Origin: Phycisphaerae bacterium
GTDB lineage: Bacteria > Planctomycetota > Phycisphaerae > WQYP01
DNA: 64,000 bases
Assembly: GCA_051955985.1 (NCBI GenBank)
Contig: JBQCGD010000138.1
Location: 15,786-79,785, forward strand
Direction: 5' to 3'
Shown: piece by piece, positions 4,179 through 46,180 of the stretch
Numbering within the stretch: position 1 is the stretch's first letter
Layout of the letters: each line of letters starts with the position of its first letter
Notes under the pieces: model-generated
What the model saw: the letters and a program-made list of their open reading frames with translations, nothing else
Told to the model about the DNA's origin: nothing
Databases searched by the model: none
Position numbers and translations under genes: made by a program

Positions 4179-4195
4179 GAAGGGATGATATGTGG

Positions 4196-4293: not shown

Positions 4294-4331
4294 CGTCCAT
4301 AATCCCCACGGCGTGGAAGCCGTGGGCTTGG
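4294..4331 (-). repeat. REP-like / IS200-IS605-end-like hairpin, copy 1
   Basis: Minus strand ccaagcccacggc-ttccac-gccgtggggattatggacg; further copies near 9553 and 42806. Confidence 0.75.
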
Positions 4332-4353
4332 AGGGTTGGGGTGTGGTTTGTAA

Positions 4354-5868: not shown

Positions 5869-6187
5869 TATATCGGCAGGGAGGGCGCGCGGGATAGAGG
5901 GGGAATGGGCGTTTTTGAGCTGAAAATGCAGATGGACAGGAGAAGGTGGACAAGCGTGTGTGCGGGGTTGTCCATCTTCTTTGCTCCATGTGTTGCGGCG
6001 GGGGCTCAAGTGTTGGCTTGCTTTTGCCGATGGATGAGTCTATCGTTGTTAATGCATTCACTTTGGGTGGGTGAGGAACGTCGGGGGGTTAGAGGTTTTT
6101 CCAGACGGTTTCTAATTTTCACAACGAGCAACCTCGGTATACTTGTGACGCGTGCGTCCGGCATTTTTCTGTGCAGAGGATGCATCA

Positions 6188-8890: not shown

Positions 8891-8945
8891 AGGTTAGAAT
8901 GGCAACCCACGGTTCGCTCTGAAGATGGCGTTGGAGACCGGGACC

Positions 8946-9395
8946 ATGAGAAAGATGATCGGCCTGATGGTGGTGGCGGCGCTGGCGGGATGCCAGAGCT
9001 CGAAGACCCTTGTGGACAACAGCGTTGCGGCGCAGATGGCGCGCAGCCTTCCGCAGGGGAGCGTGTCGGCGAACAGCGCCCAAGCGGCGCAGGCGATTTC
9101 GGCGGCGCAGGGGCTGAACAACAATCAGCAGGTGGCGAACATTCTCGCGGGTCTTGCGGCGGCGAACCAGGCGGCCACGGAGAAGAAGACGACCAGCGGC
9201 GTGCCGACGACGCTGACGATTGGCGACCTGGTGAATGCGTTCAACCATGGAGCGGCGCAATCGGCGGCGAAGGCATCGCAGCCGAAGATCGGGATCGGTC
9301 CGGGGGTAGTGGGGCCGGGGCCGGTGTTCGGGCCGACGACGAACGGGCAGAGTCTGCAGGTGCAGATGGTGCCGGCGTTGACCACGCCGTATTGA
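8946..9395 (+). CDS. Hypothetical lipoprotein, Ala/Gln-rich
   Basis: Signal peptide with lipobox LAGC; codon usage matches neighbours. Confidence 0.7.
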   Translation: MRKMIGLMVVAALAGCQSSKTLVDNSVAAQMARSLPQGSVSANSAQAAQAISAAQGLNNNQQVANILAGLAAANQAATEKKTTSGVPTTLTIGDLVNAFNHGAAQSAAKASQPKIGIGPGVVGPGPVFGPTTNGQSLQVQMVPALTTPY

Positions 9396-9396
9396 G

Positions 9397-9449
9397 GGGG
9401 ACTGGGGACTGGGGACTGGGGACTGGGGACTGGGGACTGGGGACTGGGG
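9397..9449. repeat. (GGGGACT)x7+GGGG heptamer array (STRR1-like, G-quadruplex-capable)
   Basis: Perfect tandem array starting right after the stop codon at 9395. Confidence 0.95.
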
Positions 9450-9543
9450 TATGTAAGATGCGAACGAGGGCCGGTGACGGTCCTCGGTTTGTTTTTGCAT
9501 TTGGACGGTGGCAGAGGGGGCCCGCGGGGTATTGCAGGTGGAG

Positions 9544-9581
9544 CGTCGATAATCCCTACGCCATGGAAGGCGTGGGCTTGG
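9544..9581 (-). repeat. REP-like hairpin, copy 2 (compensatory stem changes)
   Basis: Minus strand ccaagcccacgcc-ttccat-ggcgtagggattatcgacg. Confidence 0.75.
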
Positions 9582-9600
9582 TGGTTGGTTTTTGCAAATT

Positions 9601-10452
9601 TCAGGCGATGGAAGCGAGGAGGGCGAGTTCGGCGACGAGGTCCTGGAGGGTGTATTGGCGGGCGAGGTCGATGCGGAGGAACATGCCGTGGTTGTGGGAG
9701 GAATCGATGATGAGCATGCGGTCGCCGATGACGGCGTAGCCTTCTTCCTGGGCCTGGTGGCCGCAGATGAAGAGGTCGGCCCACCAGGCGCGGCTGAGGG
9801 TGTTAAGGACTTCCTGGGACTGGTTTCGGCCCCAGATGAGGTGGTAGATCGGCCCATTGCGGGCGTAATCGGCCTGGGTGAGGTCGCGGCGGAGGACGGT
9901 CTGGTCGAAGGCGGCGAGGGAGCGGGCATCGGGGAGGGAGTGGCTGAGAAAGAGGCCGGTGACGGTGATGGCGGCCAGGGGCATGGAGTAAACGAAATTG
10001 CGGAAGGCCTCCTGGACCCGCGCCGCGTCGCCGCGATAGGTGTTGTCGATGTACCGGGAGAAGCGGTCGGTGAGGTCGTAGCCATCCTTCATGATGGGGA
10101 GGCGCTGCACCTGGGCCATGTCGTGGTTGGCGAGCAGGAAGTGGACGCGGCCGGGGAACTGGCGGGCCCAGTCGCAGGCCTGGAGGAGCATTTCGAGGGA
10201 ACGGTCCTCCCCCTGGGCGCCGAGGGCCCCGCCGTGAATGAGCTCCTGCAGGATCACGTGGCGATCGGGATTGCGGTCGAGTGCGGCGACCTTTCGGAAA
10301 CGTTCGAAGTTGCGGGAATGGTTGTGGATGTCGCCGGCGACGAGGAGGTCGCCGGTGCCGGGGAAGCAGAGCATCTGTCCGTTGCGCAGAGGATCGGTGC
10401 GGTTCAATTCCGCGGCGGCATCGAGTGCTGGAATGGCTTTGTTAAACAGCAT
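9601..10452 (-). CDS. Calcineurin-like metallophosphoesterase (atypical motif II)
   Basis: LVAGDIHNH, ILQELIHGG, LLANHD, FLSHS, FICGHQ. Confidence 0.8.
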   Translation of the reverse strand: MLFNKAIPALDAAAELNRTDPLRNGQMLCFPGTGDLLVAGDIHNHSRNFERFRKVAALDRNPDRHVILQELIHGGALGAQGEDRSLEMLLQACDWARQFPGRVHFLLANHDMAQVQRLPIMKDGYDLTDRFSRYIDNTYRGDAARVQEAFRNFVYSMPLAAITVTGLFLSHSLPDARSLAAFDQTVLRRDLTQADYARNGPIYHLIWGRNQSQEVLNTLSRAWWADLFICGHQAQEEGYAVIGDRMLIIDSSHNHGMFLRIDLARQYTLQDLVAELALLASIA

Positions 10453-10537
10453 GGAACTTCCCGGGCGGACGCCCCTGGCTTTCGCCGAACTGCGTAATCA
10501 TTCTGTCATCGGCCCAGACGACCAGCCAGACATGGGG

Positions 10538-11458
10538 TTATTCGAACATCTGGTCGTCTTTGCTTTCGTCGCGGCTCTCGGGAATCATCAGGGACTCCTT
10601 GGAGAGGCGTTTGAGCGGTCCTTCGACGTGCGCCACGGTGAGGGCGAGTTCCAGCCGCGGGATGACCGCGGTGAAATCCTGCGGGCGGTGCGAGGGGCGG
10701 TTCTGGACGCAATCCATGATGACGCGGGAGAGGGGCATGGGGATTTGCGGATTGAGCTCGTGGGGCGCCTTGGGCTCGCGGTTTTCGTTGACGGGGGCGG
10801 TGGGGACGCTGGATTTGTCTTTCTTCTTGGGGATGAGGGTGGGGATGTGGTGGTCGGTGCAGCACCAGTACATGGTGGCGCCGAAGTTGAAGACGTCGGT
10901 GGCGGGGGTGAGTGGCCCGCGGCCGACCTGTTCGGGGGCGATGTAGTCAGGGGTTCCCTGGATGCGGGTTTTGACGGTACCGATGGAGCAGGACTGGCCA
11001 AAGTCGATGATCTTGGTGACGAACTTGTCATTGACGAGGATGTTGTTGGGCTTGATATCGGCGTGGACATAGCCAAGGCGGTGCATGGCGGCGAGGCCCT
11101 GGGCGACCTGGACGAAGATCTTGATGAGGGAGGAGAGTTTTTCGGGGCGTTGGACGTCGAGGGATTGGCCGTCGAAGAGTTCCATGAGGAGATAGAGTTC
11201 GGCGGTTTTGAGCATTTTGCGGCGGCGGATCATGCGGATGGATTTGCGGAGGGAGGGGTGGTCGAACTGGGAGGCGATGGCGAATTCCTGTTCGGCCTGT
11301 TCGATGAAGCGGTCATCGTCGGCGGATTTGCGGACGACGCGTTTGAGCGCGTAGACCTGGCCGGACTTCTTTTCGGAGACGGCGTAGATCGTGCTCCGCG
11401 CCCCGTAGCCGAGGCAGGAGATGATTTCGAAATCAGCGATTTCGGGCAGTGGGTCCAT
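10538..11458 (-). CDS. Soluble Ser/Thr protein kinase
   Basis: LGYGARS, YALKRV, VHADIKPNN, IIDFG, GTPDYIAPEQ. Confidence 0.92.
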   Translation of the reverse strand: MDPLPEIADFEIISCLGYGARSTIYAVSEKKSGQVYALKRVVRKSADDDRFIEQAEQEFAIASQFDHPSLRKSIRMIRRRKMLKTAELYLLMELFDGQSLDVQRPEKLSSLIKIFVQVAQGLAAMHRLGYVHADIKPNNILVNDKFVTKIIDFGQSCSIGTVKTRIQGTPDYIAPEQVGRGPLTPATDVFNFGATMYWCCTDHHIPTLIPKKKDKSSVPTAPVNENREPKAPHELNPQIPMPLSRVIMDCVQNRPSHRPQDFTAVIPRLELALTVAHVEGPLKRLSKESLMIPESRDESKDDQMFE

Positions 11459-11778
11459 GGTTGCCTGGTTCGCGATCACAGCACACCCTTTACGACGGAA
11501 CAATTAGCATAACACGACGGACCGCGGCAAGTGACGCGGCGCCGGCATGAAACACTGTTACCTATTCGGCCGCCGGTATTCGGGTGTTCGGAAGATTTTA
11601 GACACTTTGACCGAACAGGGCCCGATAATGGCGACCAATGAACAGGAACTTCTCCCGGTCATGCGTGGAACAACGCACAGTGCATTGTTCCGGCGCGGGT
11701 GCGGCTGAAGGAATCGTGTAAGGGGGAACCCACCACGCCTGGTGGTCCACCACTGCGACTCAACTGGAAGGGGGAAAC

Positions 11779-12474
11779 TTACTGAAGCGAGCTGCGGAAT
11801 CGGTCCGCATACGCCTTTTGCTGAGCGGTGGCTGGGGAGTGATTGGGGAGCAGGGAGTCCCATTGAAAGAGGACATGCTCTTTGGGAATGTTCAGGCGTT
11901 GTTGGAGTTCGTGAACGAGGTGGTTTAGCTGGAGTGTTTGGGCATCCGACGGAAACTGCCGGTGTAAGTCAGCAGCCAAACAGATCCCGATAGCTCTGTT
12001 ATAAGGTTTATCCGAATAATAGCGAACGTCAGTATCGGGCCAGTTTGCGTACGGAGCGCTCACGCTCTGATAGTGCCACGCCGTGCCGATCTCCAGGTTG
12101 CCATCCATTCCGCCGTTCCCGGCGCCATCGACTACAAAATGGAAGTTTGCCCTGGGCCGCACCGTGTTGGGTGGAAGTTGACTGCCTCCTGTGACACGAC
12201 CGTCGGCAAGGCTGGCGCAACTGGCGTCCAAGTCTTCCGATTCGTAGATGATGATATAGTCCCACCCGTCGGTCTGCAATGGGGCAGCGGTCTCGAAAAT
12301 ATCAGGAGGCGCGGAGACTGCGGCGGCCATGGGGCTGTCGCCGAGGGTTCCCCCCTCCATCAGCAGAAGGGCCCCTGCACTGATGGTGAGTGTCCCCACG
12401 AGGGCGCCCAGAACGGTCGCAACGCGTTTTTGACTCACAGGTTTTTTCCTGCTCGATCTGCTTTTATCGGCCAT
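11779..12474 (-). CDS. Membrane-anchored Amidase_2/PGRP-fold protein lacking the Zn ligands
   Basis: N-terminal TM helix; WDYIIIYES...NFHFVVDG...AIGICLAAD...SDAQ...LQQRLNIPKEHVLFQW aligns with the amidase fold, but His/Tyr/His/Cys positions are substituted. Confidence 0.7.
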   Translation of the reverse strand: MADKSRSSRKKPVSQKRVATVLGALVGTLTISAGALLLMEGGTLGDSPMAAAVSAPPDIFETAAPLQTDGWDYIIIYESEDLDASCASLADGRVTGGSQLPPNTVRPRANFHFVVDGAGNGGMDGNLEIGTAWHYQSVSAPYANWPDTDVRYYSDKPYNRAIGICLAADLHRQFPSDAQTLQLNHLVHELQQRLNIPKEHVLFQWDSLLPNHSPATAQQKAYADRFRSSLQ

Positions 12475-22525: not shown

Positions 22526-23461
22526 TCAGTTCTTGACGCCGGCAAGTTTCAGTGCCTGCGGAACCGACGTGTAGCCAAGCAGTGCCGCATTCGTCGAATG
22601 CCACGTCCACGCAAGCCAGGTCCGCTCCACGTTCCAGCGTGAGTTCAGGATTCCCAACGAATCCACCAGCCCGAGCACCTGGTGCACGTTCGTGAACTCC
22701 GGCGGGAACCAGATCGCCGCGCCGATCGTGACGATCATCAGTTTCCCATGCACCGGCTTTCCCGTGGCGGCCGATTCCTGGAGCAGCCCTTCCAGCGCAT
22801 TTTCAATCGAGTAGTTCCCTTTGCTGTGCCCCACCAGCAGCTTCACCTTGGGCCCTAGCGAAGAGAGGATATAGAGCAACGCCGTCGAGTCCGGGCACCC
22901 ATACAGGAATCCCTCGCTGATCCCGTTATCCGCGAATTGGGCCTTGATGGCCTCGTGCGACGGCTGATGCCGGACGTGGTCTTTCACCTGCGCCGCCTTC
23001 AGGGCAGTCGCGATTTCGTCGCGCTCAATATTGGCCTTGCCGAAGACAAACCATCCGCCCCAGGCCTCGGTGGCGACATCCGCCAGCCCCAACCCCGACA
23101 CGATCCCGGCCACGGGTTTCCCGAGGTAATCCGCCACATCACGCGCCAGGCTGGCCGTGCCCAAGGCTGAGCTTCCGACGCCTGCAACGACGATCGTCTC
23201 CACCGCCTGGCCGCTCCCGAGCTGCTCCTGTACGAATTCCGGCGAACGCAGTGCGCGAATCGGCGCGTTGGCTTTCGCCGGATGGACGATCAGCACCATC
23301 CCTTCCGGATCGATGTGCTGCGAAAGTTCGACCCGCTCGTCCGTCGCCAGCGACCCCGTGTCATAGAACACCCGATCCAGCGACGTATTCATGCTGCGCC
23401 AGAACGAAATGAACATGCGACGCGATCCTTCCTGCGCCTGATCAAATAATGAAGTCGTCAC
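22526..23461 (-). CDS. Hypothetical protein with alpha/beta-hydrolase nucleophile elbow
   Basis: LLVGHSKGN (GxSxG); VAGVGSSALG..LARDVAD; start approximate. Confidence 0.65.
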   Translation of the reverse strand: MTTSLFDQAQEGSRRMFISFWRSMNTSLDRVFYDTGSLATDERVELSQHIDPEGMVLIVHPAKANAPIRALRSPEFVQEQLGSGQAVETIVVAGVGSSALGTASLARDVADYLGKPVAGIVSGLGLADVATEAWGGWFVFGKANIERDEIATALKAAQVKDHVRHQPSHEAIKAQFADNGISEGFLYGCPDSTALLYILSSLGPKVKLLVGHSKGNYSIENALEGLLQESAATGKPVHGKLMIVTIGAAIWFPPEFTNVHQVLGLVDSLGILNSRWNVERTWLAWTWHSTNAALLGYTSVPQALKLAGVKN

Positions 23462-23642
23462 AAAAGCCCCCTTTTTCCGATGTCGTGTGATGAACCAACG
23501 ACAACTGCAGGAACGCCACGGCACTCCGACACGCCACCCCCTTTCGCCCGAAATGTATTCAGCTCCGCGTACTATTTTCCAAAACCATCTGCCCCCGTTC
23601 AATACAATTCCGAAAACCCCGCGATTTTGGGCGGATTCGCCC

Positions 23643-24572
23643 TCAACGGCATGACGCGATCGCCGTCGCCACCGCTTCCGGGCTTCCCACGATTCCTGAA
23701 AAATTACCCGGCACGCCTCTCCGCCCCCCCACCGCATCGATGATCCGCTGTGCGCACCATGCCGCCACCACGGGCGTCCAGGCGACCTTCTTCAACGGCA
23801 CCAGCGACGCGTAGGACTCCAGCAGCACCGAGCCGCGTAACTGATCAAACGTCCCGTCCGCTTTCACGCACAATCCCAGAAACGCGTCCACCACATCCTC
23901 CAGCGGACTGCCCCAGTGCAGCAGGCCCCAATCGACCATGGCGCGCAACTGGTGATCTGCATCGTGCATCAACGCCGCGGGCTGAACATCGCCATGCACC
24001 CAGCCGTTCTCCACCGCCACCGGCAACCCCATCAACCCCACCAGCCGCCCGATGGTTTCGCGTCCGATCGCCGGCACATTGGCGACCGGATGCTCGTCGC
24101 CGCCGGAAATTTCCCGCTCCAGGCGTATCGCCAGTTGCACCTTCTCCGGCGGCGCGGGGACCTGCTCGCGCAAGAGCCGATGCATCCACGCCAGCCGCAG
24201 CCCCACCTGCGACACATCATGTTCCGTGTATTGCTCCGGCGGCAGAGCGGAACCCGCCACCGCCAGCGACACCATCAGCCGGCCGTTCTGCAGACCCTCG
24301 CCCACGAAGCCGCCGCTTTTTGCCTTCATCCACGGCACGACGGTGAAGCGGTTGTCGTCGAGGGAATTGACGGCGCCCGCCATGAAGTCGAGTTGCTCTG
24401 CGGGATACGCCGCGGGGTACAGATACGCGAGGTACTCATTCTGCTGCGCCGTCAGCAGTTCAAATGTCGCCGCCTGCCGCCCGCGCGTTACCTGGCGAAA
24501 CCGGATGATCCGCCCGAGGCCGAACTGGCGGGCAAGCAATCCATTGAGCAAGTACGTCTGCTGATCATCCAT
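23643..24572 (-). CDS. Aminoglycoside/choline-kinase (APH) fold phosphotransferase, atypical
   Basis: WVHGDVQPAA and VDWG motifs; TATAAT 6 nt upstream of the ATG. Confidence 0.7.
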   Translation of the reverse strand: MDDQQTYLLNGLLARQFGLGRIIRFRQVTRGRQAATFELLTAQQNEYLAYLYPAAYPAEQLDFMAGAVNSLDDNRFTVVPWMKAKSGGFVGEGLQNGRLMVSLAVAGSALPPEQYTEHDVSQVGLRLAWMHRLLREQVPAPPEKVQLAIRLEREISGGDEHPVANVPAIGRETIGRLVGLMGLPVAVENGWVHGDVQPAALMHDADHQLRAMVDWGLLHWGSPLEDVVDAFLGLCVKADGTFDQLRGSVLLESYASLVPLKKVAWTPVVAAWCAQRIIDAVGGRRGVPGNFSGIVGSPEAVATAIASCR

Positions 24573-24627
24573 CGCCGCATTATAGCCCCGGTGCCGCAGG
24601 CAGGCGTGAGATCGAGGCCCACAATGC

Positions 24628-24658
24628 AAAAACAAAAGAACCCGTGCGAACACGGGTT
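24628..24658 (-). terminator. Intrinsic terminator downstream of the dienelactone hydrolase-like gene
   Basis: Minus strand aacccgtg-ttcg-cacgggtt followed by cttttgttttt. Confidence 0.75.
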
Positions 24659-24683
24659 TCGTGAAAACGACCGGATTGGTTGT

Positions 24684-25607
24684 TCACTCATCATCCGACT
24701 TCTTCGGCGCGGCCCGCAGCCATTTGGCCAGGAAATTCCGCGTGCGTTCTTCCGACTGCTGCGCCGCCATCGCGTTGTATCCCTGCCGCGTCGGCACAAG
24801 GAACCCGTGCCCCACGCCCGGGTAGCGCACCACGTTGTAGAACACGCCGTTTGGATTGTGCGACAGCCGCGATTCCAGCGCCTCGATCTGATCCGACGGC
24901 ACCTGCGGGTCGTTCGTGCCGTAAAAACTCAACAGCGGCGCGTGCAGGTTCAGCAGATCATCCACCGGTGAAATGGGGCGACTCTGCGAGGTGCTGCTGT
25001 AGATGATCCGGCCGTAGTAATTCACCGCCGCTGTCACGCGCAGATCGGTGCCCGCCATCATCATGGCATAGATGCCGCCCATGTCGTAGCCGACGATCCC
25101 GAGCGGCTGCCCGGCCGTCGGCTTCCCGTCCGCCTGCAGGTAATCAATTGCGCCGGAAATGTCCGACATCACCTGCTGGTCCGACGTCTGCTCGTAATCG
25201 AGGTATGCCTGCTGGGCGTTCACCCCGTGATCGGTGCTCGGAATCCGGGAATACAGGTTGGGCACCAGGACGGTATAGCCTTGTTTGGCGAGTTCATTCG
25301 CCTGCTTCTTTACCCAATCGGTCATGCCGAAAATATCCGGAACGACTACGATGGACGGGTGCGGCCCCCCGACCGCCGGATCGACCTGGTAGGCCTGGAT
25401 GTCATGCCCCTCACTTCGATAGGTGATCATTTGCCCGGGCTTGATGGCGGTGGTAATTGGCTTTCCGTAAGCCGCCGCCGGTTGCGACGTTGCGGCAGCC
25501 GCGGAAGCCTGCGGCGTCTCGTTCGCCGCCTGGGGCTGGGTTGCCTGACCGAAAGCCACTCCACCGCAAAGCAGGAGCGTTGCCGCCCAATATGTACGCA
25601 TAGCCAT
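24684..25607 (-). CDS. Secreted dienelactone hydrolase family protein with Asp at the nucleophile position
   Basis: Signal peptide; VVPDIFG, GYTVLVPNLY, GIVGYDMGG, YYG, YPGVGHGF. Confidence 0.85.
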   Translation of the reverse strand: MAMRTYWAATLLLCGGVAFGQATQPQAANETPQASAAAATSQPAAAYGKPITTAIKPGQMITYRSEGHDIQAYQVDPAVGGPHPSIVVVPDIFGMTDWVKKQANELAKQGYTVLVPNLYSRIPSTDHGVNAQQAYLDYEQTSDQQVMSDISGAIDYLQADGKPTAGQPLGIVGYDMGGIYAMMMAGTDLRVTAAVNYYGRIIYSSTSQSRPISPVDDLLNLHAPLLSFYGTNDPQVPSDQIEALESRLSHNPNGVFYNVVRYPGVGHGFLVPTRQGYNAMAAQQSEERTRNFLAKWLRAAPKKSDDE

Positions 25608-25840
25608 CTCCGACGAAAGCCCCGCCCGCTCAACCATGGACACGCGGCATGGGCGTGCTCACGGAGAGTTACGCGAATCCGGGCATGGCGGATTGAATCG
25701 CAGGGCCCCTACGCCAGAATGACGCACATTCGGCCTCAGAAGCGGCACCGCAATTGCCGATAAGGAGCGAATAGCCGCGGGTATGTGCCTTGGCTACACT
25801 TGGCCTATTGAGTCCCCCCACCCCTCGCGAGGTTTGTTGA

Positions 25841-27610
25841 ATGAAAACTGTCGTTCACGTCACGCACGAAGCCGTCCACAAAATCGGCGGCATCGGCGCC
25901 GTTCTCCATGGCTTGATCACTTCCAAAAGCTATCGCGGCGAGGTCGGCCGCGACATCCTGCTTGGGCCGCTCTTCTCCACGGAAGGCCCGATGGAGGGGC
26001 GCCTCCACGGCGGGAAAGTGCTCTATTCCGGCGTGGATGGCTACCGCGACACGCAATACGCCAACGACTTCGCCCGCATCGAGCACGAATTCGGCATCAA
26101 ACTCGTGTATGGAAAAAAGACCTTCCACGATCCGCTCACCGGCATCACGTCGGAACCGGAAGTGATCCTCGTGGACGTGCGCACCTACAATCCCGAAAAA
26201 ATGGGCGTGCTGAAATTCGTCCTCTTCCAGGATTACGGCATTGATTCCGGCAAGTACGAACACATCTGGGATTATGAGCAATACTGCCGGATCGCCGAGC
26301 CCGGCCTCGAAGCCATCCGCGCCATCGGCGCTTGCCAGAACGGGGACAAGCCGATCGTGCTCGCCCACGAGTACATGGGCATGCCGACCGCCCTCGCCGC
26401 GCGCTCCCGCTACCCGGGCCAGTTCCGGACGATCTTCTACGCCCACGAAGTCGCCACCATGCGGCGCATCGTCGAGGAGCACCCGGGTCACGACACGATG
26501 TTTTACAACGTGCTCGACAAGGCGCAGGCGAAGGGCGAGTACGTGGAGGACGTCTTCGGCTCGCAGAAGGGCTTTTACAAGCACCCGCTGGTCGAGGCGT
26601 CGCGCTATTGCGACAACATTTTTGCGGTCGGCGATTACGTCGTGAAGGAACTCCGGTTCCTGCGCAAGGAATTCAAGGACCTGCACATCGACCTCGCCTA
26701 CAACGGCGTGCCGGCGCGCACGCTCACGCCGGAAGAGCGGCAGAAATCGCGGCAGAAACTCCGCCAGTATTGCTGCAACGTGCTGGAATTCCAGCCCGAC
26801 TTCGTCTTCACGCACCTGACGCGCCTCGTGCCCTCCAAGGGGCTGTGGCGCGACATCCGTGTGCTCGAGCAGCTCGAAAAACACCTGGCGAAGGACAACA
26901 AGACCGCGGTGCTCTTCATCGGCTCGACCGAAACCATCGGCCGCGCTCCGCACGACATCGCCAACATGGAAAAATGGTACAAGTGGCCGGCCGCGCACCG
27001 CGAGGGGCATCCCGATCTGACCGGGGGCGAAGCCAACTTTTACGCCGGCGTCCAGGAATGGAACGCCAAGGCCCGCTTCGTCAAAATCATGTACATCAAC
27101 CAGTTCATCATCGACGACAAGACCCTCGGCGCCCGCGCGCCCAAGGGGATCGACTTCCTCGATTTCCGCAAAGGCTCCGATGCGGAATTCGGCCAATCGA
27201 TCTATGAACCCTTCGGCATCGCGCAGGTGGAGCCGATTTCGTTCGGCGGGATCTGCGTCTTCACGACGCTCTGCGGCTGCGCGGGCTTCGTGCACAAGGC
27301 CGCCGGCGAAAAGCCGACGCCCAACGCGATTCCCGTGGATTACACGAAGCTTCCCGAGAGCCTGAAGGGCCAGACGATCGCGGAACTGCTGAAGATGGAA
27401 AAGAAGACGCGGGACGAAATCGAGCAGAGCGTTGCCGCGGAAATCGCGGAGGAACTCTACAAGCGTCTGCCGCGCACGTCGCAGGATTTCGAACGCCTGA
27501 TCGCCGCCGGCGGAAAGATCGGCGCCGAAATGTCCTGGGATGCCGTTGCCCGCAACTACGTGCTGCCCGGCATGGAGCATGCCCTGAAAGGCAAGGGCGG
27601 CGCGAAATAA
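25841..27610 (+). CDS. Glycogen-synthase-like glycosyltransferase (GT3/GT4-like GT-B fold)
   Basis: THEAVHKIGGIGAV (KxGG), LAHEYMG, FYAHE, SIYEPFG. Confidence 0.7.
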   Translation: MKTVVHVTHEAVHKIGGIGAVLHGLITSKSYRGEVGRDILLGPLFSTEGPMEGRLHGGKVLYSGVDGYRDTQYANDFARIEHEFGIKLVYGKKTFHDPLTGITSEPEVILVDVRTYNPEKMGVLKFVLFQDYGIDSGKYEHIWDYEQYCRIAEPGLEAIRAIGACQNGDKPIVLAHEYMGMPTALAARSRYPGQFRTIFYAHEVATMRRIVEEHPGHDTMFYNVLDKAQAKGEYVEDVFGSQKGFYKHPLVEASRYCDNIFAVGDYVVKELRFLRKEFKDLHIDLAYNGVPARTLTPEERQKSRQKLRQYCCNVLEFQPDFVFTHLTRLVPSKGLWRDIRVLEQLEKHLAKDNKTAVLFIGSTETIGRAPHDIANMEKWYKWPAAHREGHPDLTGGEANFYAGVQEWNAKARFVKIMYINQFIIDDKTLGARAPKGIDFLDFRKGSDAEFGQSIYEPFGIAQVEPISFGGICVFTTLCGCAGFVHKAAGEKPTPNAIPVDYTKLPESLKGQTIAELLKMEKKTRDEIEQSVAAEIAEELYKRLPRTSQDFERLIAAGGKIGAEMSWDAVARNYVLPGMEHALKGKGGAK

Positions 27611-27707: not shown

Positions 27708-29450
27708 TTAATGACCGCTCAAGGTCGTCACCCGCACCGGCAACTCCCCGCCAATTAACCCGGTCGAGCTCGCCGTGATCACGTAGTTCCCGCCCTGTGA
27801 AATCGACAGGCCGCGGAATATCGCCGCGCCGTGCGCCGCCGTCGCCGTTACGCGCCCGTTGAGTTCCCCCACGCCGCTCCCGCTCAAGGTCAACGTGACG
27901 ACCGGCGAAAACTTGGTCACCGGCTTTCCGTTCTGATCCAGAAGCCGGACCGTCACCGTGTTCTTCGCATTCACCAGCCACACCCGCGCGTTGCTGGTCA
28001 ACTCAAAATGCGGCGGCGGCTGGATCGCCCCCTGGCCGACGCTGAAATTTGCTGACACTGCCGTCGCGCCGATCCCCGTCGCCACCAGCCGATAGATGCC
28101 CGGCGTTTTCACCCGGATCCCCGCAAATGTCGCCACCCCATTGACCGCGGCCACTGATCCCACCACGCCCGCCGGCGCAAACTTCGTCCCCTGAAAGATC
28201 TGCAGCGTCAACGTCACTGTGTCGCGGGAGTTTTTCACCACCCGGCCTGCCGCATCCTGCACCAGCACACGAATCGGCTTCGGCTGCGCCGCTCCGATCG
28301 CCACGTTCGCCGGGTTGTTGGCAAAAGCGAGTTGGCTGGCCACGGTGGAAACGCCAAAGAGGATTCCGCGTCCCGCCGTGCCGCCGAGTTGCGACACGCC
28401 GAAGACGGTCCCGCTCGCGCTCACCGTCAGTCCCCCCGCCACGCCGAGGGGTGCGAAACTCTGCAGCACCACAGGCGTGGCACTTCCCACCGGCAGTTCC
28501 AGCAGCGTGTCGCCGCTGCCCGACGTTGCGGTGAAGAACAGATTCCCGGCGGCATCTTCCGTCAGGGAATTTCCCCCAACGGCCCCCGCCGGCACAACCC
28601 CGCTCAGATCCGCAAGCTGCACCACCCCCGCCCGCCCGTTCAAAATCTCCACCACCGACGTATCCGTTAGCGCAAACAAATTCCCGGCGCTGTCCACATG
28701 CACCGCACGCGGGTTCGGAAGCTCGGTGAGAATTGTCGGCTGACCGGCCCCCAGCGGATTCATCCGGAACACGTTGCCCTGCCCCAGGAAGTTCGCCACC
28801 GTCCCCGCCTGCGCCTCGCCGTAAATCGTTCCATTCGGGCCGAGCGCCACCGCTCCCGGCGTCTGGCCGTCGGTCAATCCGCGGAAGGCGTACAACTGCC
28901 GAAACACCCCGCCGGAAATCTGAAACACGTTGCCGAATCCCGTGCCCGCATCCGAGGTCGAACCAAAAAGATCCCCCGCCGCATCCACCGCCAGCGAACC
29001 GTTGGGCGATGTTCCCTCCCCTGGCGCAAACGCATGCAGTGTCGTCAGCACGCCGCTCTGCGGCTGAAATTCCCAGACGGTCCCCTGCCCGAATGCGCCG
29101 CCGGAGAGCGTCACGCCAAACAGATTGCCTTGGCCATCGATTGTGAGGAGCCCGCTGGGCAGCGATCCATCCGCACCGCCGGTAAAGGAATGGAGAATCG
29201 TCACCGCGTTTGTTCCAGCCGGAATTTCATAGAGCGTCCCGAGCGTTCTGGAACCGCCGGCCAGGGTGACGCCGAAAAGATCGCCCTGTGCGTCCGCCAC
29301 CACGCCGCCGGTGGGCGCATTCCCGTCCGTGCGCCCGCCCGCAAACGAATGCACCGTAAAAAAGTTGGCCGACAGGAGCGTGCGCCCCTCGAGACGCTCC
29401 ACCCCACAACACCCAGCAAACCGCCTCGCGCGCCATTTCTTCGTAAGCAC
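27708..29450 (-). CDS. Secreted protein with LEPR-XLL motif, GloVer-type beta-propeller repeats and C-terminal Ig-like modules
   Basis: VERLEGRTLLS; repeated DG..P.G.L..D..GNLFG.T..GG...GT; LAFANNP/VTLTL/ATF.GL repeats; start approximate. Confidence 0.8.
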   Translation of the reverse strand: MLTKKWRARRFAGCCGVERLEGRTLLSANFFTVHSFAGGRTDGNAPTGGVVADAQGDLFGVTLAGGSRTLGTLYEIPAGTNAVTILHSFTGGADGSLPSGLLTIDGQGNLFGVTLSGGAFGQGTVWEFQPQSGVLTTLHAFAPGEGTSPNGSLAVDAAGDLFGSTSDAGTGFGNVFQISGGVFRQLYAFRGLTDGQTPGAVALGPNGTIYGEAQAGTVANFLGQGNVFRMNPLGAGQPTILTELPNPRAVHVDSAGNLFALTDTSVVEILNGRAGVVQLADLSGVVPAGAVGGNSLTEDAAGNLFFTATSGSGDTLLELPVGSATPVVLQSFAPLGVAGGLTVSASGTVFGVSQLGGTAGRGILFGVSTVASQLAFANNPANVAIGAAQPKPIRVLVQDAAGRVVKNSRDTVTLTLQIFQGTKFAPAGVVGSVAAVNGVATFAGIRVKTPGIYRLVATGIGATAVSANFSVGQGAIQPPPHFELTSNARVWLVNAKNTVTVRLLDQNGKPVTKFSPVVTLTLSGSGVGELNGRVTATAAHGAAIFRGLSISQGGNYVITASSTGLIGGELPVRVTTLSGH

Positions 29451-29605
29451 AGTTGTCTCCTGAAATCCGAGGCCACCCCGCCACGCCGACTCTTCTTCAA
29501 GCCTACCTCCGATTCTCGGACAGTCAAAAAGCGTTGTGTCGGCCAAAAGCACGATTCCAGCCGCACCCCCCCCGTTATTACCGGAACTTCGCCTATACTG
29601 ACCGC

Positions 29606-37891: not shown

Positions 37892-38204
37892 GGCGATTCT
37901 CCTGTGCGTTGGGTTGTCCTGAACGGCCGCGTGAGCGGAATAGGCGGAAACCGCTTCACGCGGCCGCGTCCGTGGACAACGGAACCTGATACCAGTCTCG
38001 CGTTGATGACTCCCCGCCAAACCTCCTCGCTCCCGTACGCCGGGAACCGAGTGGGCGGCCGGGCTGACACGTGGACCCGGCCGCTGTACGGCTTGTGGAG
38101 CGCCATCGAATCGGCCTCATTGCCAACTGGCCGATTCCTGCGCGAAAACGCTTGAGGGGGCACGGGCGTCCCTGTCATGGGGGGTCGCCCGTGCCCGGAT
38201 GCAG

Positions 38205-38249
38205 TCAAAAAGAAAAGCCCCGGAGACTCTTTTTGAGGGTCTCCGGGGC
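38205..38249 (-). terminator. Intrinsic terminator (attenuator 3:4 hairpin)
   Basis: Minus strand gccccggagac-cctcaaaaaga-gtctccggggc-ttttcttttt. Confidence 0.85.
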
Positions 38250-38278
38250 TTTCTGTTGGCCGCACGTTGTTTTTTCTC

Positions 38279-38431
38279 TTACGTGCCCGGAGGACCCTCG
38301 CTCGGCGTAATGCCCGACTTAAACGCATGAAGGCGGGCAACGTTCGCCGAGGACATGGACATAACGCACGCGCGGCGAACGCTGGTATTCAGCGTATTGC
38401 ACGTCGTCGTGTTGTTGTTACGCCATGTCAT
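38279..38431 (-). CDS. Putative 50-aa leader peptide MTWRNNNTTTCNTLNTSVRRACVMSMSSANVARLHAFKSGITPSEGPPGT
   Basis: Translated by hand (below the ORF-track cutoff); agga 8 nt upstream; its 3' end carries the antiterminator segment. Confidence 0.6.
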   Translation of the reverse strand: MTWRNNNTTTCNTLNTSVRRACVMSMSSANVARLHAFKSGITPSEGPPGT

Positions 38432-38488
38432 AAGAGCGATCCTGTCGCACGAAAAGCGGACGTCCGCATGGACGCCCTTCGAGTTTTT

Positions 38489-38516
38489 ACTGTAGCCCAG
38501 CCCGAGGAAAAGTCAA
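38489..38516 (-). promoter_or_regulatory. Sigma70-like promoter for the leader/GNAT transcript
   Basis: Minus strand TTGACT-16 nt-TACAGT. Confidence 0.6.
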
Positions 38517-38547
38517 CGATAATCTTTTCATCGGCATGCGTTGGGGG

Positions 38548-38976
38548 TTACTTCACCAATGTGGCTTTGAGCTCAATCGGCGTTGCCGCAAGCGCTTGCG
38601 AAATGGGGCAGCCGGTCTTCGCCTTGCCTGCAATTTCCTGGAATTTGGCGTCATCGATCCCCGGGACCTCGGCGTCGGTGGTCAGTTGGATCTTGACGAT
38701 TTTGAACCCTTCGCCGACCTTGTCGAGGGAGACGTCGGCCTTGGTGGTGACGCGCGTCGGGGTGTGGCCGGCCGAGGCGAGCAGGTGGGAGAGGGCCATG
38801 GAGAAGCAGGCGGCGTGGGAGGCGCCGAGGAGCTCTTCGGGGTTAGTGCCGGGGCCGTTCTCGAAACGCGTCTGGAAGGAGTAGGGGTGGTTGACGACAC
38901 CGCTGTTGGATTTGACGGTGCCTTTGCCTTTCATGAGGTCGCCGTTCCAGGTGGCTTCAGCGTGACGGGTGATCAT
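38548..38976 (-). CDS. osmC: OsmC family peroxiredoxin
   Basis: RHAEATWNGDLMKGKG, TRFENGPGTNPEELLGASHAACFSMAL, AKTGCPIS. Confidence 0.92.
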   Translation of the reverse strand: MITRHAEATWNGDLMKGKGTVKSNSGVVNHPYSFQTRFENGPGTNPEELLGASHAACFSMALSHLLASAGHTPTRVTTKADVSLDKVGEGFKIVKIQLTTDAEVPGIDDAKFQEIAGKAKTGCPISQALAATPIELKATLVK

Positions 38977-39076
38977 GACATTTTCTCCTGTGCAAGTAAT
39001 TTTTGTCAGAGGGGCTATCACACACGGGGCGGGGCGAGTTGGCAAGGGGGGATTTTTGTGTCAGACGCGCAGACTT

Positions 39077-39100
39077 GGCCGACGAGGGCGTCGGCCCCAC
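39077..39100 (-). repeat. REP-like hairpin with GTGG foot
   Basis: Minus strand GTGG-ggccgacg-ccct-cgtcggcc. Confidence 0.5.
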
Positions 39101-39468
39101 CTGGTGCAAAAGGAAGGGCACCCGGCGGAGCGGTGACGCCGCCGGGTGCTGAGGAAGGAAGAACTGGCATGTGGAAAGCGTCGGCGAGCTAGTGGGAGGT
39201 AGGAGCGAGGCCAACGCGTGTTCGCTTTGAGCCGCGAACGAGGCACTGCAAACTTGGAATGCCGGCGAGAATTCAAAGTCCCGTTTCCGGGGCCGCGATT
39301 TCTCGCCGACGGAAGAGAGGTAAAACAAAGGGCGTGCCAGACATTGGGAATGGGGCGTGGAAGTTTTTTTGGAGGCGAGATGGGGCGAGTTGTCGTTGTT
39401 TGGGCGGCGCGTGGGGAGCAAACTGCGGCGGGACGCGTTGAAAGCGGGGATGGCGTTGTTGTGCTCGG

Positions 39469-41841
39469 TCATGGCGTCGCCCCTCCTGGTTTTTGGACTT
39501 CGCGCAGCCAGAGGGCGGTGGTGATGAGGCGGGGGTAGTACTTGGAGCCGCGGGCTTCGCCGTTGACGATCTGGTCGCACGCACACCAGTAGGCGGCGGG
39601 GCCGGTGGTGAGCCAGCGGACGTGGGCGGCGTCGGCACGTTCCCATCCGGTGGCGGCGGGGTATCGGGTTTCGGGTGTCGGGGTTCGGGTGTTGCCGTCT
39701 TCGTCGAGGTTGAAGAGGGAGCGGGCGACGTGCTGGACGATGGCGATTTTGGAGAGCCAGGAGTTGTTGGAGGTGGAGGAGAGTTTGATGCCGTGGTCGG
39801 GGAATTTGTTGCGGTGCTGGGGGTCGGAGAGGAGGGTGATGGTGTGGGTTCGGAGGGACGAAATCATTTTTGCGGTGCCCGTTTCGGCTGCATAGCTTCC
39901 ACCGGCAAACTTGACGGGTAGTGATGAGACATAGTCGGCGAGAGTGGAACCGCCGCGTGCGATCGAAGATTCGTTCCAATAGAGAGGATATTTCAAGGCT
40001 TCGATCGCGGGGAGTATGCGGGAGGGCTGTGTCGATCCAAAGATTGCGGCCAGAAAATTCTCGCTGTGCATCTGCGAGGCGATGGTCGCGGCACATGTAT
40101 CTGAATGGTCAAACAGGGTCGCGCTATTCACGAGCGGCCCAAGGGGGTCGGGCGCGCTTACTTCACAAATCAGGTCCAAACCTTTGTAAGCGGCCCAGCA
40201 TTTCACAGCCAGGTAAAGGTTGTTTCGGGCTTGGCCAAGTGAGGCGTCGAGCGAATCGAATGTCGTGATCTCGCTGCCACTTCCACACATCGCCGTGTCA
40301 TGCTGCATGATCCCTTTGCCGTCGCGTTTGGCGGCGCTGTCGCGGTTTCGCATGCTGAGGTAACAGTCTCTGAAGACGTCAGCATTTCTTTTTGCCCACT
40401 CGGCGTCACCGGTTTTGGCGACGTAGCTGGCGGCGATGAGGAGCCAGTTGCAGAGTTGTTCCTGGGTCATGTAGGAGAAGCAGCCGGTGAGGTTTTTGAG
40501 TTCGTAGGAGGATTGGCCGAAGGGGGAGAATTGGTTGTGGGTGCCCTGGTCGTGGGTGAAGGAGATTCCTCCCGGTGCCGTCTTTGGAACCACGGAGTTC
40601 ACGGAGGGCACGGAGTTCCTGTCTCCCAACGTCTCCGTGTTCTCCGTGGTTCCATTCATCTTCACCTGGTCGGTGTAACTGTAGCGCTTGAGGAAGTTGT
40701 CGAGGAGGTTTTTGACGACCCAGGGGTTTCGGTCCAGTTCCCAGAAGACGTGGTCGACGGCGAGGTCGAGGGTGTTCATCATGCAGTATTCGCCTTCGTT
40801 TACGATCCAGTAGGGTTCGTCCTCAATTTCGAGGAGCTGGGTGTTGGCGTAGTAACTGCGGGTTGCGTGGGCGATGAGGAATTGCTGGTTTTCGCTGAGG
40901 CCGGAATTGGCAAGCTGCTTGTCTTGTGATTTGGCGAGTTGTTTGAGGTCGCAGAAGCGGTCGAGGGCGGCGTTGAGGACGTCTTCGATGTTTTTGTAAT
41001 GGCGCGTGTAGAGGTAGCGCCCCTCCAGCCTCGTGGTCACGACTTCGGGGAAGTAGCAGGCGAGGGCGAGGTGGAGGGTGTAGCGTTTGCCGGGGGGGAC
41101 TTCGAAGCCGATGCCGGGGGTGGTGCCGAGGAGATGGACGGGGTTGGCGCGGTCTTCGAGGCCTTCGTGGGGCCACCAGCGGAGGAAGGGGAAGGGGGTG
41201 GGCGAGCTGATTTTGGGGTGGGCGGGGCAGCCTTTTTCGGGCATGTCGTAGAGTTCGGCGGCGAAGGCGTAGTTGGCGCGGTGGGCGAGGCCGATGCGAC
41301 CGGGGGAGAGGGTTTCGAGGAGGCGGTTACCGGCATCCTGAAAGTTGATAGAGAAGAAGCCGGTCTTGGTGGCGGTGCCGGGGCGGTTGTCGATGATGAG
41401 TTCGGCGGTGATGGCGGGGAGGAGGGCGGATTTCAGTTGGTCGAGAGTGGCGGTGGCGGGGTCGGGGAGGTCGATGAACGGGGTGTAGAGGCTGAATTCC
41501 ATTGTGCCGTCGTTTGTTGTCCAGCGGTCGGTGGACCAGCCGTACTCGCGGGTGAGTTCGGATTCGGCGAAGGGGGAGAAAGTTTGGCGGTCTTCATTTT
41601 CCTTTTGCGGCAGGAAGGCGGCGGTGGGGTCGATTTTGTCGGCGTTGTTGAAGAAGGGGAGAACGCGGAGCGGGGCGGGGCTGTGGACGGACGCGTCCTT
41701 GTACCCGATGAAGAGGTCCTGGTTGGCCGGTTTCCCCAGCTGCGCCGCCAGTCCCCCACGCGTCCCAAAGTGCCCGCACGTAAACGTCAGGTACGCCCCC
41801 GCCGGCGAATGATGGGCATTGAAATTGACCGGAAACCCCAT
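39469..41841 (-). CDS. Glycoside hydrolase family 52 (beta-xylosidase)
   Basis: FNAHHSPAGA, VNEGEYCMMNTLDL.VD, GGISFTHD.G, EITTFDSLDASLGQARNNLYLAVK, SNNSWLSKI, KYYPR. Confidence 0.92.
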   Translation of the reverse strand: MGFPVNFNAHHSPAGAYLTFTCGHFGTRGGLAAQLGKPANQDLFIGYKDASVHSPAPLRVLPFFNNADKIDPTAAFLPQKENEDRQTFSPFAESELTREYGWSTDRWTTNDGTMEFSLYTPFIDLPDPATATLDQLKSALLPAITAELIIDNRPGTATKTGFFSINFQDAGNRLLETLSPGRIGLAHRANYAFAAELYDMPEKGCPAHPKISSPTPFPFLRWWPHEGLEDRANPVHLLGTTPGIGFEVPPGKRYTLHLALACYFPEVVTTRLEGRYLYTRHYKNIEDVLNAALDRFCDLKQLAKSQDKQLANSGLSENQQFLIAHATRSYYANTQLLEIEDEPYWIVNEGEYCMMNTLDLAVDHVFWELDRNPWVVKNLLDNFLKRYSYTDQVKMNGTTENTETLGDRNSVPSVNSVVPKTAPGGISFTHDQGTHNQFSPFGQSSYELKNLTGCFSYMTQEQLCNWLLIAASYVAKTGDAEWAKRNADVFRDCYLSMRNRDSAAKRDGKGIMQHDTAMCGSGSEITTFDSLDASLGQARNNLYLAVKCWAAYKGLDLICEVSAPDPLGPLVNSATLFDHSDTCAATIASQMHSENFLAAIFGSTQPSRILPAIEALKYPLYWNESSIARGGSTLADYVSSLPVKFAGGSYAAETGTAKMISSLRTHTITLLSDPQHRNKFPDHGIKLSSTSNNSWLSKIAIVQHVARSLFNLDEDGNTRTPTPETRYPAATGWERADAAHVRWLTTGPAAYWCACDQIVNGEARGSKYYPRLITTALWLREVQKPGGATP
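40586..40653. repeat. 68-bp palindromic repeat element inserted in frame in the GH52 gene
   Basis: Perfect 12-bp terminal inverted repeats ggaaccacggag...ctccgtggttcc with internal cacggag units; encodes GTTENTETLGDRNSVPSVNSVVP. Confidence 0.75.
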
Positions 41842-41955
41842 GCAAATTCCTCCACCGCAAACTCTTACATCGAATCCCTACTATTCCTATAGGAATAGGG
41901 AGGAGACCGCCAATGACGTACACACGTTTGGCGGTCTGGGTCTTCACCGCGTCCA

Positions 41956-42708
41956 TCATCCCTCTCTCGTCACCACCAGCGACGCAGGATCGATCTTCGC
42001 CACCACCGGCATCGCGTCGATCTTCGCACAGTGATCGATGTCGTCCTCAAGGCCGGCCTCAATGATGTTGATCGCCCCCTGGCCGAGGCGGAGTGCGGCG
42101 GGGAGGCGGGGGCGCACGGCGGAGAAGGCGTGGTAGGCGAGCCAGGCGGTGTCGGTGAAGGGGAGGTCGGCGCGGTAGGTGTGGGCGAGGAGGGAGAAGA
42201 GGATGGCGCCGGCGCCGAGGGAGTCTTCGAGGGCGAGTTTGCCGTTGGTGCCTGCGCAGATGAGGAGGGTGTGGCCTCCGGCGGTGTCGAGGTTTTCGGC
42301 GAGGGCCTTGGCGGTGGCGGTGGCGTTGAGGAGGCTTGCGGCGAACATGTGTTTCGCGGTGCGGGCGCGGGTGGCGGCGCGGGTGCCGTTGGTGGTGGCG
42401 AGGAGGAGGGTGGCGCCGCCGATTTTTTCGGTGGTGTGTTCGCGGGGGGAGTTGCCGAGGTCGAAGTCGGCGGGTTTGAGGCATTGGGTTTCGCCGGCAG
42501 CGATGAGGGGGGCGGGGAACTGGTTGGACGATTTGGCGGCGCGGACGGCGTCGAGGGAGTCGAACAGGTGGACTTCGCGGGCGCCGTTGAAGAGGGCGGT
42601 GGTGATGGTGGAGGTGGCGCGGAGGACGTCGAGGATGACGACCTGGGATTGGGGGAGGAGGTCGTGGGCGTTGGCGAGGTCGGCGGGGGTGAGGAGGACG
42701 TCGATCAT
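41956..42708 (-). CDS. comB: 2-phosphosulfolactate phosphatase family (ComB-like)
   Basis: VILDVLRATSTI, DLGNSP, TTNGTRA, LEDSLGAGA. Confidence 0.85.
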   Translation of the reverse strand: MIDVLLTPADLANAHDLLPQSQVVILDVLRATSTITTALFNGAREVHLFDSLDAVRAAKSSNQFPAPLIAAGETQCLKPADFDLGNSPREHTTEKIGGATLLLATTNGTRAATRARTAKHMFAASLLNATATAKALAENLDTAGGHTLLICAGTNGKLALEDSLGAGAILFSLLAHTYRADLPFTDTAWLAYHAFSAVRPRLPAALRLGQGAINIIEAGLEDDIDHCAKIDAMPVVAKIDPASLVVTREG

Positions 42709-42797
42709 GGTTTGGTGCTCCGGGAAAGGGGAACATTATAGGGAGGATGACGACTGCAGGCTTTGAAACGTGTCCGGGAATTTTGTTGGGCGGCGAA

Positions 42798-42835
42798 AAT
42801 CGATCATCCCCACCGCGTGGAAGCCGTGGGCTTGG
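42798..42835 (-). repeat. REP-like hairpin, copy 3
   Basis: Minus strand ccaagcccacggc-ttccac-gcggtggggatgatcga. Confidence 0.75.
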
Positions 42836-42921
42836 CGCAGTGGGTGCTTGCGGATCAATGAGTGGCGGCGGGAGGGGTCGTGGGATAAGGTGAGGGAGTT
42901 GTTTGTCTTTGCTGTGAGGGT

Positions 42922-44268: not shown

Positions 44269-44399
44269 CGGATCGATCGCCAGGGCGAAAAGATGCAGGG
44301 CGGGGCGGAGCTGTCTCAAAATAGGAGTTCCGCCTAGAATGCGGGATTCTCGCATCGCGAGCGCGATGGGGCGTTGTTTTTGGCGTAAGGAGCCTGACT

Positions 44400-45668: not shown

Positions 45669-45718
45669 GGGAGTATCCAAACAATTTTAATTTGAGGGAT
45701 GATTTCTTGCCTCTGTCG

Positions 45719-46180
45719 ATGGAAGAATCCGAGACCAGATTCTTTGTTTCGCGCGGTGACATACGATGGGTTAGAGTTCTGGCTCTTTGCAATGGCATCG
45801 CGGGGATTCTTTTGGGATCCCTGGTACTGGCGGCTGGATTCTATATCCTCTACAGCTTAATCACCGGTAAGATCCGGGCTGGTGATGCAGGCGTCGTGTT
45901 GTTTTTTTGTGCGATCTACGTGATTCCGAACTTTGGATGCGGAATCCTCAATACAGTGGGATTCTGCAAAATTAAAAGCACCACGTCCCGCTGGCGCATG
46001 CTGATGTGGGTTGCTACCATTTTTCATCTCTTTTTCATGACGGCGTGGCTTGGCATGATCGTCTTCCTGTTCATCACTGACGCTGAATCGCTGGCGACTC
46101 CATTTGCCATCACGGCACTTTTGATTGTCTCACTTTCGGCCGAATTGCGTTACCTCTGGCTCACGCGACCACCTTCGTAA
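45719..46180 (+). CDS. Hypothetical 4-TM membrane protein, AT-richer than neighbours
   Basis: Four hydrophobic segments; abrupt composition change after the truD stop. Confidence 0.65.
   Translation: MEESETRFFVSRGDIRWVRVLALCNGIAGILLGSLVLAAGFYILYSLITGKIRAGDAGVVLFFCAIYVIPNFGCGILNTVGFCKIKSTTSRWRMLMWVATIFHLFFMTAWLGMIVFLFITDAESLATPFAITALLIVSLSAELRYLWLTRPPS

Follow-up and report, generated by a model that had tools for sequence, protein, structure and literature searches.

A planctomycete clade of the dienelactone hydrolase family with a conserved aspartate at the nucleophile elbow

The dienelactone hydrolase (DLH) family is described as 'characterised by a cysteine nucleophile' (PMC8533429; bioRxiv 10.1101/2025.10.30.685675), and a 2024 classification of α/β-hydrolases lists C-D-H triads for DLH and D-D/E-H triads only in epoxide-hydrolase-type clusters (PMC11878206). 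What, then, is to be made of a family member with Asp at this position? The question is raised by a gene in a 64,000-nucleotide stretch of DNA from a Phycisphaerae bacterium, a soil planctomycete (contig JBQCGD010000138.1 of assembly GCA_051955985.1, positions 15,786 to 79,785; the whole stretch is called the window). Its product, here named Asp-DLH, belongs to PF01738 by sequence and fold, yet it is without the family-defining Cys nucleophile. From sequence comparison, the protein is most likely an active Asp-His-Asp hydrolase, probably with an anionic substrate. Full-text literature searches, with most subscription journals outside their coverage, found no description of an Asp-type DLH.

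The minus-strand open reading frame (ORF) at 24684-25643 is open throughout, with no internal stops. Residues are numbered on the longest reading of the gene (P0001, 319 amino acids, from GTG 25643). The protein matches the Pfam DLH profile PF01738 at 142.7 bits (cut-off 21; E=1.6e-41) over profile positions 1-215 of 217. The match to Abhydrolase_1 is marginal (26.6 bits, cut-off 25.8) and that to the NCBIfam YghX model is below threshold (80 bits, cut-off 460). The nucleophile elbow reads G-Y-D-M-G-G, with the codon of D187, GAC, at 25083-25085. In HMMER alignments D187 is in register with Cys123 of the Pseudomonas DLH (1din; Ser in the C123S mutants) and with the elbow Cys of 3f67, which agrees with the sequence-only reading of the locus, where Asp had been placed at the position of the catalytic Cys. 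The coordinates of this and the other features are collected in Table 1.

The Asp is shared by a well-delimited clade. A word-seeded search returned 47 homologue clusters at 46-84% identity, all of them with V-G-(Y/H/V/I/L/F)-D-(M/L)-G-G at the elbow, D-P-Q after the acid and G-H-(G/S)-F at the His; the next matches, at 29% and 25% identity, carry Cys. A clade profile retrieved about 51 clusters, down to 41% identity and at 326 bits or more for the near-full-length members, with Asp in 50 and Ser in one. Below them there is a gap, and the next matches, from 159 bits, are Cys-type DLHs with Tat signals (elbow GFCMGG, MEAFG at the β3 loop). When 1.84 billion representatives at 50% identity were scanned exhaustively with HMMER, four clade representatives scored 362-238 bits, followed by a sharp fall to at most 155 bits; of the best 150 representatives, 123 carry Cys at the elbow, 10 Gly, 5 Asp and 5 Ser, and the remaining 7 have another residue or a gap. 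The clade, made of 46 Asp rows and one Ser row (P0052, GYSMGG), has a support of 100 and a stem of 0.78 in a 129-row tree, where it is nested among Cys-type DLHs. The Ser elbow of P0052 is confirmed by a near-identical second sequence (P0243). Every member that has a name derives from a metagenome-assembled genome (MAG) of Phycisphaerae, Phycisphaerales or Planctomycetota. In the taxonomic family of the window, a protein search found Asp-DLH in G001, G004, G012 and G013 and an N-terminal fragment at a contig edge in G017; the other 19 genomes of the family that were searched gave no match.

These results bear directly on the explanation by artefact or decay, in which the Asp would be an inactivating change private to this genome, a mistake in sequencing or assembly, or the mark of a pseudogene. 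The frame is intact, and the Asp codon was found in eight independent assemblies, as GAC in seven and as the synonymous GAT in one. It had been considered beforehand that the close orthologues might all have Cys; the nearest orthologues carry Asp, and Cys begins outside the clade. The homologue survey refutes this explanation, whose probability we regard as negligible. The GYDMGG-type Asp is strictly conserved, a real active-site variant and not a broken gene. The motif does mark a conserved clade, a point that the sequence-only reading had put forward for checking, and its view that a read error is unlikely is borne out.

The other catalytic residues are in place. The triad of the Pseudomonas DLH (ClcD, 1din) is Cys123-His202-Asp171, according to the literature and the alignment, and not Cys-His-Glu as the sequence-only reading had it. 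H279, in the VGHGF motif that was correctly named there as the retained His, is in register with His202, and D245, in the motif YGxxDPQ, is in register with Asp171; both are invariant across the clade. The same reading had taken the Asp of PDIFG for the acid of the triad. The motif is present, but its D103 occupies the auxiliary Glu36 site, where the E36D mutant 1zi9 reads QDIFG, and the true acid is D245, which is also kept. The glycines of the oxyanion loop are kept in the clade, and by analogy the backbone of I104 presumably provides the oxyanion-hole NH.

An AlphaFold2 model calculated on the clade alignment has a mean predicted local distance difference test (pLDDT) score of 88, with values of 91-98 over residues 61-310 and above 96 in the core. 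It shows a DLH-type α/β-hydrolase fold without a large cap domain, with two short helices (143-169) between β4 and β5. The best 25 Foldseek matches are all DLH-family entries, with target-normalised template-modelling (TM) scores of 0.90 to 3f67 and 0.85 to 1din, and the clade profile matched only DLH-family structures in the PDB. Residue 187 is the sole residue outside helix and strand between strand 181-186 (β5) and helix 188-199 (helix C), so that the model puts D187 at the classical nucleophile-elbow position.

The substitution at the elbow is accompanied by other changes in the pocket. Forty-seven clade members were compared, position by position, with 135 Cys-type relatives. Common to both groups are G106, R133, D155, D161, G185, G189, G190, Y210, G211, D245, H279, F281 and R286. 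Positions were called clade-specific when the residue is present in at least 91% of the clade and at most 15% of the Cys type, and these are D103, Y150, D187, N208, R222, P246, Q247, N263, N265 (inserted), V277 and G288. For D103, Y150, N208, P246 and Q247 the figures are at least 94% and at most 13%. The Glu36 position is Asp in 98% of the clade and Glu in 73% of the Cys-type relatives; Q247, which matches Phe173 of ClcD, is found in 100% and 0%, respectively. Y150 matches Trp88 of ClcD, and N208 is located in the β6 loop. R286 is present in the whole clade and in 75% of the Cys-type relatives; it probably binds an anionic group on the substrate. The Ser-type member also exchanges Q247 for Ser and G280 for Asn, and this joint change is a weak hint that Q247 may be the partner of the Asp carboxylate. 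Four other positions lining the active site (Asp103, Tyr150, Asn208 and Gln247) have changed together with Asp187, and purifying selection has kept the whole set down to 41% identity. Drift is unlikely, because the clade diverges to that level with the residues kept.

This coordination counts against a non-catalytic protein, in which the DLH pocket would be kept for a ligand only, for example in a periplasmic binding or chaperone protein. Asp is not the DLH nucleophile; a DLH-fold protein, RIB26 (8g2z), is a structural protein of microtubules; and in a same-genus relative the Asp-DLH gene is followed by a gene for a TonB-dependent receptor, all of which would suit such a binder. So would the many relatives with Gly, Ala, Arg or Trp at the elbow that look like pseudoenzymes. 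Eight of them (P0073, P0083, P0086, P0103, P0105, P0108, P0152 and P0189) have also lost the triad His and are probable pseudoenzymes scattered through the family tree, judging by their sequences. The Asp clade behaves differently: all 51 Asp-type sequences keep both the His and the acid (D-D-H), as compared with a loss of the His in 8 of 15 relatives with an elbow Gly, Ala, Arg or Trp, a comparison in which the clade members, being related, are not independent samples. His279, Asp245 and the elbow glycines do not vary in about 51 clusters, and the active-site positions have shifted in concert and show no decay. The conservation pattern disfavours a non-catalytic binder, which we consider quite improbable.

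Comparison with characterised or structurally known relatives shows how far the Asp-type pocket departs from the Cys type. The best match is 3f67, a putative dienelactone hydrolase of Klebsiella pneumoniae (KpDLH; phmmer 6.4e-25, clade profile 4.6e-40, 28% identity). Together with the YghX-type DLHs (E. coli 4zv9), it shares with Asp-DLH the long β6 loop, the H-x-F-x(4)-R-x-x-Y motif, the acid Asp and the His. Unlike Asp-DLH, 3f67 has an elbow Cys (GFCWGG), its Glu36 site is occupied by Glu (QEIFG), and the signal peptide, the linker, Y150, N208 and Q247 are absent. ClcD, whose triad is assisted by Glu36, Arg81 and Arg206, has the same fold with the His and the acid in register, and its Tyr85 and Trp88 correspond to the aromatic residues 147 and 150 of Asp-DLH. 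From ClcD to Asp-DLH, Cys123 is replaced by Asp187, Glu36 by Asp103, Arg81 by Ala143 and Phe173 by Gln247. Arg206 of ClcD is out of register, and Asp-DLH has instead an Arg seven residues after the His. In ClcD, Glu36 holds the resting Cys and Arg81 couples substrate binding to the activation of the Cys; Asp-DLH is without this activation device. Moreover, ClcD is cytoplasmic and encoded in chlorocatechol operons, whereas Asp-DLH is exported and has no aromatic-degradation neighbours. The nearest relatives outside the clade are Tat-exported Cys-type DLHs (P0200-P0227; about 27% identity, 140-159 bits, about 285 amino acids), which share the export and the His, Asp and Arg motifs and keep GFCMGG and the Glu36 residue (MEAFG).

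The Asp-His-Asp composition of the putative triad is, by alignment, that of epoxide hydrolases, haloalkane dehalogenases and fluoroacetate dehalogenase. The elbow of epoxide hydrolases reads G-H-D-W-G-G, which the V-G-H-D-M-G-G of many clade members resembles, and fluoroacetate dehalogenase binds the carboxylate of its substrate via Arg, of which the conserved Arg of the clade is reminiscent. The likeness ends there. Epoxide hydrolases and haloalkane dehalogenases have the oxyanion motif HGXP after β3, a Trp after the nucleophile that positions the halide or epoxide, and a helical cap domain with a Tyr pair or halide-binding residues, whereas the β3 loop of Asp-DLH is V-P/H-D-I-F-G, and at E ≤ 1e-5 the clade profile matched no structure of either enzyme type in the PDB. 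The families are different ones, and if the mechanism in the clade is similar to theirs, it would be a case of convergence.

We tentatively favour, at a little less than an even chance, an exported Asp187-His279-Asp245 enzyme in which the carboxylate would attack the substrate. Asp187 would attack an sp3 carbon, the route of epoxide hydrolases and dehalogenases, and so form a covalent enzyme ester; the alternative first step is attack on an activated carbonyl such as that of an enol-lactone, which would give a mixed anhydride. Water activated by His279 would then cleave the intermediate at the Asp carbonyl, which the backbone NH groups of I104 and M188 could stabilise. Conservation of Arg133, Arg222 and Arg286, together with the polar Tyr150, Asn208 and Gln247, suggests that the substrate is small and anionic or polar. 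A broader proposal is that the clade represents a further independent origin of Asp-nucleophile chemistry, on a cap-less DLH scaffold: an exported enzyme forming an aspartyl ester or anhydride with an anionic electrophile (e.g., a carboxylated epoxide, a halo-acid or an activated lactone), in which Gln247, Asn208 and Tyr150 would replace the Tyr/Trp machinery of epoxide hydrolases and dehalogenases. In this full form it is possible but doubtful.

Several observations weigh against a carboxylate nucleophile. The hallmarks of epoxide hydrolases and haloalkane dehalogenases are not found, neither HGXP nor the cap domain nor the Trp after the Asp, where the clade has Met or Leu. Carboxylates are poor at attacking ordinary esters; the Ser of a basal clade member is more in keeping with acyl transfer than with bimolecular nucleophilic substitution (SN2) chemistry; and the genomic context yields no clue to the substrate. 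Finally, the adjacent carboxylates predicted for D103 and D187 could bind a cation instead.

That last point leads to a metal site formed by Asp103, Asp187 and His279, which would make the protein a metal-dependent hydrolase on an α/β-hydrolase scaffold. Glu36 contacts Cys123 in DLH, and with D103 aligned to Glu36 the two carboxylates and the imidazole are predicted to be close; the changes from Glu to Asp and from Cys to Asp are also coupled. There is no precedent for it in the family, and the clade-specific positions hold no extra His or Asp ligands, and we judge it very unlikely. Asp187 could also, with His279, serve as a general base or accept a hydrogen bond and so activate water or the substrate directly, in a hydrolase, lyase, isomerase or decarboxylase type of reaction. 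The conservation is equally compatible with such non-covalent catalysis, the absence of the hallmarks just mentioned speaks for it, and α/β-hydrolases with a D/E-H dyad and no nucleophile are on record (PMC11878206). It is nevertheless unlikely in our estimate, as the full G-x-D-x-G-G elbow and the oxyanion-loop residues, which a covalent mechanism needs, are retained and nothing positive sets it apart from the attack by the carboxylate.

A carboxylate nucleophile at the elbow also has to be seen against other variants of the family. A Nitrospirae lineage known from MAGs (P0132/P0245) has the elbow GFDMGA, is cytoplasmic, keeps Glu36 and has a 98-member cluster, and the metagenomic P0107 has GLDWGG, an Asp-Trp pair that recalls dehalogenases and epoxide hydrolases. 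The elbow Asp arose independently in both. These further lineages make it more credible that the DLH scaffold can work with Asp as an alternative.

Papers regard the family as dependent on Cys, and this premise underlies its current mining and engineering, the work on metal-free phosphotriesterases being one example. The natural, strongly conserved Asp-His-Asp form, whose pocket has evolved along with it, would mean that the DLH scaffold supports a third nucleophile, a role we infer from sequence; the Ser member inside the clade and the independent Asp lineages in Nitrospirae and elsewhere are related cases. The clade thereby offers a defined test case of whether a carboxylate at the elbow carries out acyl transfer via an anhydride or SN2-type chemistry as in epoxide hydrolases and dehalogenases, and it is a warning against the current annotation of Asp-type proteins as 'carboxymethylenebutenolidase' in databases. 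The taxonomic range is narrow and the context is without a functional clue, yet the enzymological question is a clear one.

The N-terminus of the protein indicates export. Each of the 29 N-termini compared within the clade has MR, a hydrophobic core and an A-x-A/G that precedes Q, and the cleavage site before this Q was placed by the -3/-1 rule. The signal peptide of Asp-DLH, MRTYWAATLLLCGGVAFG, is of the Sec type and common to the clade, in line with the secretion claimed from the sequence earlier, and the product is predicted to be exported, periplasmic or extracellular. A reading of LLLC as a lipobox was rejected, because its Cys is not conserved among the orthologues. The start codon had been set at ATG 25607. 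This ATG is in frame; the orthologues start two codons downstream, at the ATG at 25601 (MRTYW...), which is likely the true start because the orthologues begin there. Gene callers on public sequence identical to the window and all orthologues alike give MRTYW or MR(T/S)(F/L). The linker after the signal peptide differs in length and sequence between orthologues, and residues 1-50 have pLDDT values below 55; next comes the YGKPxxTxIxPGxM motif, a conserved feature of the clade that connects to the first strand of the domain.

Escape from the oxidation of an extracellular Cys was considered as a cause of the replacement and rejected as insufficient. The genome encodes two further secreted DLHs with Cys (GFCWGG and GWCMGG) and signal peptides, and the nearest outgroup is a Tat-exported Cys type, so export alone is not enough to account for the change to Asp. 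The Asp-type protein is presumably not redundant with these Cys-type paralogues.

Table 1. Positions in the window of Asp-DLH, its active-site elements and the adjoining features
Feature	Position	Strand	Basis
Asp-type DLH-family coding sequence, 305 amino acids + stop (P0002)	24684..25601	-	ORF; Pfam; orthologue and gene-caller starts
Sec-type signal peptide, predicted cleavage before Q	25548..25601	-	orthologue N-termini
Pro/Ala/Thr/Gln-rich low-complexity linker, then YGKPxxTxIxPGxM motif	25470..25547	-	pLDDT, orthologues, consensus
P-D103-I-F-G loop after strand β3	25326..25340	-	alignment to 1zi9, 1din
Nucleophile elbow G185-Y-D187-M-G-G190	25074..25091	-	DNA ggc tac gac atg ggc ggc; alignments
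Y-G-T-N-D245-P-Q247, with D245 as triad acid	24903..24923	-	aligns with Asp171 of DLH
G-V-G-H279-G-F, with H279 as triad His	24801..24818	-	aligns with His202 of DLH
R286 (His+7), Arg of the H-x-F-x(4)-R-x-x-Y motif	24786..24788	-	aligned with the Arg of 3f67
Terminator-like hairpin, 8-bp stem (5 G-C pairs) and T-rich tail, 26 nt past the stop	24629..24658	-	consensus match, z = -1.5
APH/homoserine-kinase-like phosphotransferase, downstream, start uncertain	23643..24572	-	Pfam (APH 9e-13)
Divergent intergenic region shared with the glycosyltransferase-like gene, holding TTATCGGC	25602..25840	.	locus comparison
589-amino-acid glycosyltransferase-like gene, divergent from Asp-DLH	25841..27610	+	locus comparison

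The gene surroundings were compared across the Asp-DLH loci. The Asp-DLH gene looks monocistronic, therefore, from the terminator-like hairpin that follows its stop. Its only constant neighbour is the divergent gene for a 589-amino-acid glycosyltransferase (GT)-like protein, which adjoins it in nine of nine loci with upstream DNA. Of 41 Phycisphaerae relatives, 39 carry the GT-like gene as a core gene in single copy (41-87% identity), and in G016 it directly faces the APH-like gene with no DLH gene between them. For these two reasons the adjacency is best explained as synteny by descent, and a functional link between Asp-DLH and the GT-like neighbour was rejected as evidence. With a core gene as the sole constant neighbour and variable genes downstream, the context gives no clue to the substrate.

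No Pfam or NCBIfam model matches the 589-amino-acid protein above threshold, and by sequence nothing in the PDB matches it. Weak GT1 and glycogen-synthase-like matches are its only ones, around residues 407-488, and by sequence it looks like a member of an uncharacterised conserved GT-like family. In the intergenic region, where a promoter scan found no σ70-like site, TTATCGGC (GCCGATAA on the sense strand of the GT-like gene) is kept in six of seven otherwise divergent DLH/GT intergenic regions, those of the window and the equivalents in L020-L025. The motif is a possible promoter or operator of the GT-like core gene.

On the downstream side, the APH-like gene is found 0.1-2.4 kb from Asp-DLH in five loci. 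The genes that follow Asp-DLH vary: L020 has a TonB-dependent receptor, L022 an AMP-binding enzyme and L024 a GFO oxidoreductase, and the other loci have unknowns there. The receptor gene of L020, from the same-genus relative G001, encodes 714 amino acids and lies between Asp-DLH and the APH-like kinase (L020:7126-9270); the corresponding segment of the window, 24573-24683, holds no TonB-dependent receptor gene, Asp-DLH and the APH-like gene being about 100 bp apart. Because other relatives carry unrelated genes there, this slot is a variable insertion point. The APH-like gene of the window is followed by an ORF of about 350-400 amino acids without a family match (22526-23737, minus strand), and L020 instead has a type I phosphodiesterase after the kinase; the window encodes an orthologue of this enzyme at 42925-44262.

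Beyond the GT-like gene, the minus strand at 27708-29552 encodes a 614-amino-acid protein with three GloVer 'choice-of-anchor' tandem repeats (TIGR03803, 3.7e-30) and a weak C-terminal match to GH2. The GC skew of the plus strand is extreme, up to +0.55 per kb, in window positions 1-12000 and 38000-52000, and slightly negative at about 16-38 kb, the weakly skewed part in which the DLH gene lies. The codons of the ORF at 1009-2058 are nearly free of C.

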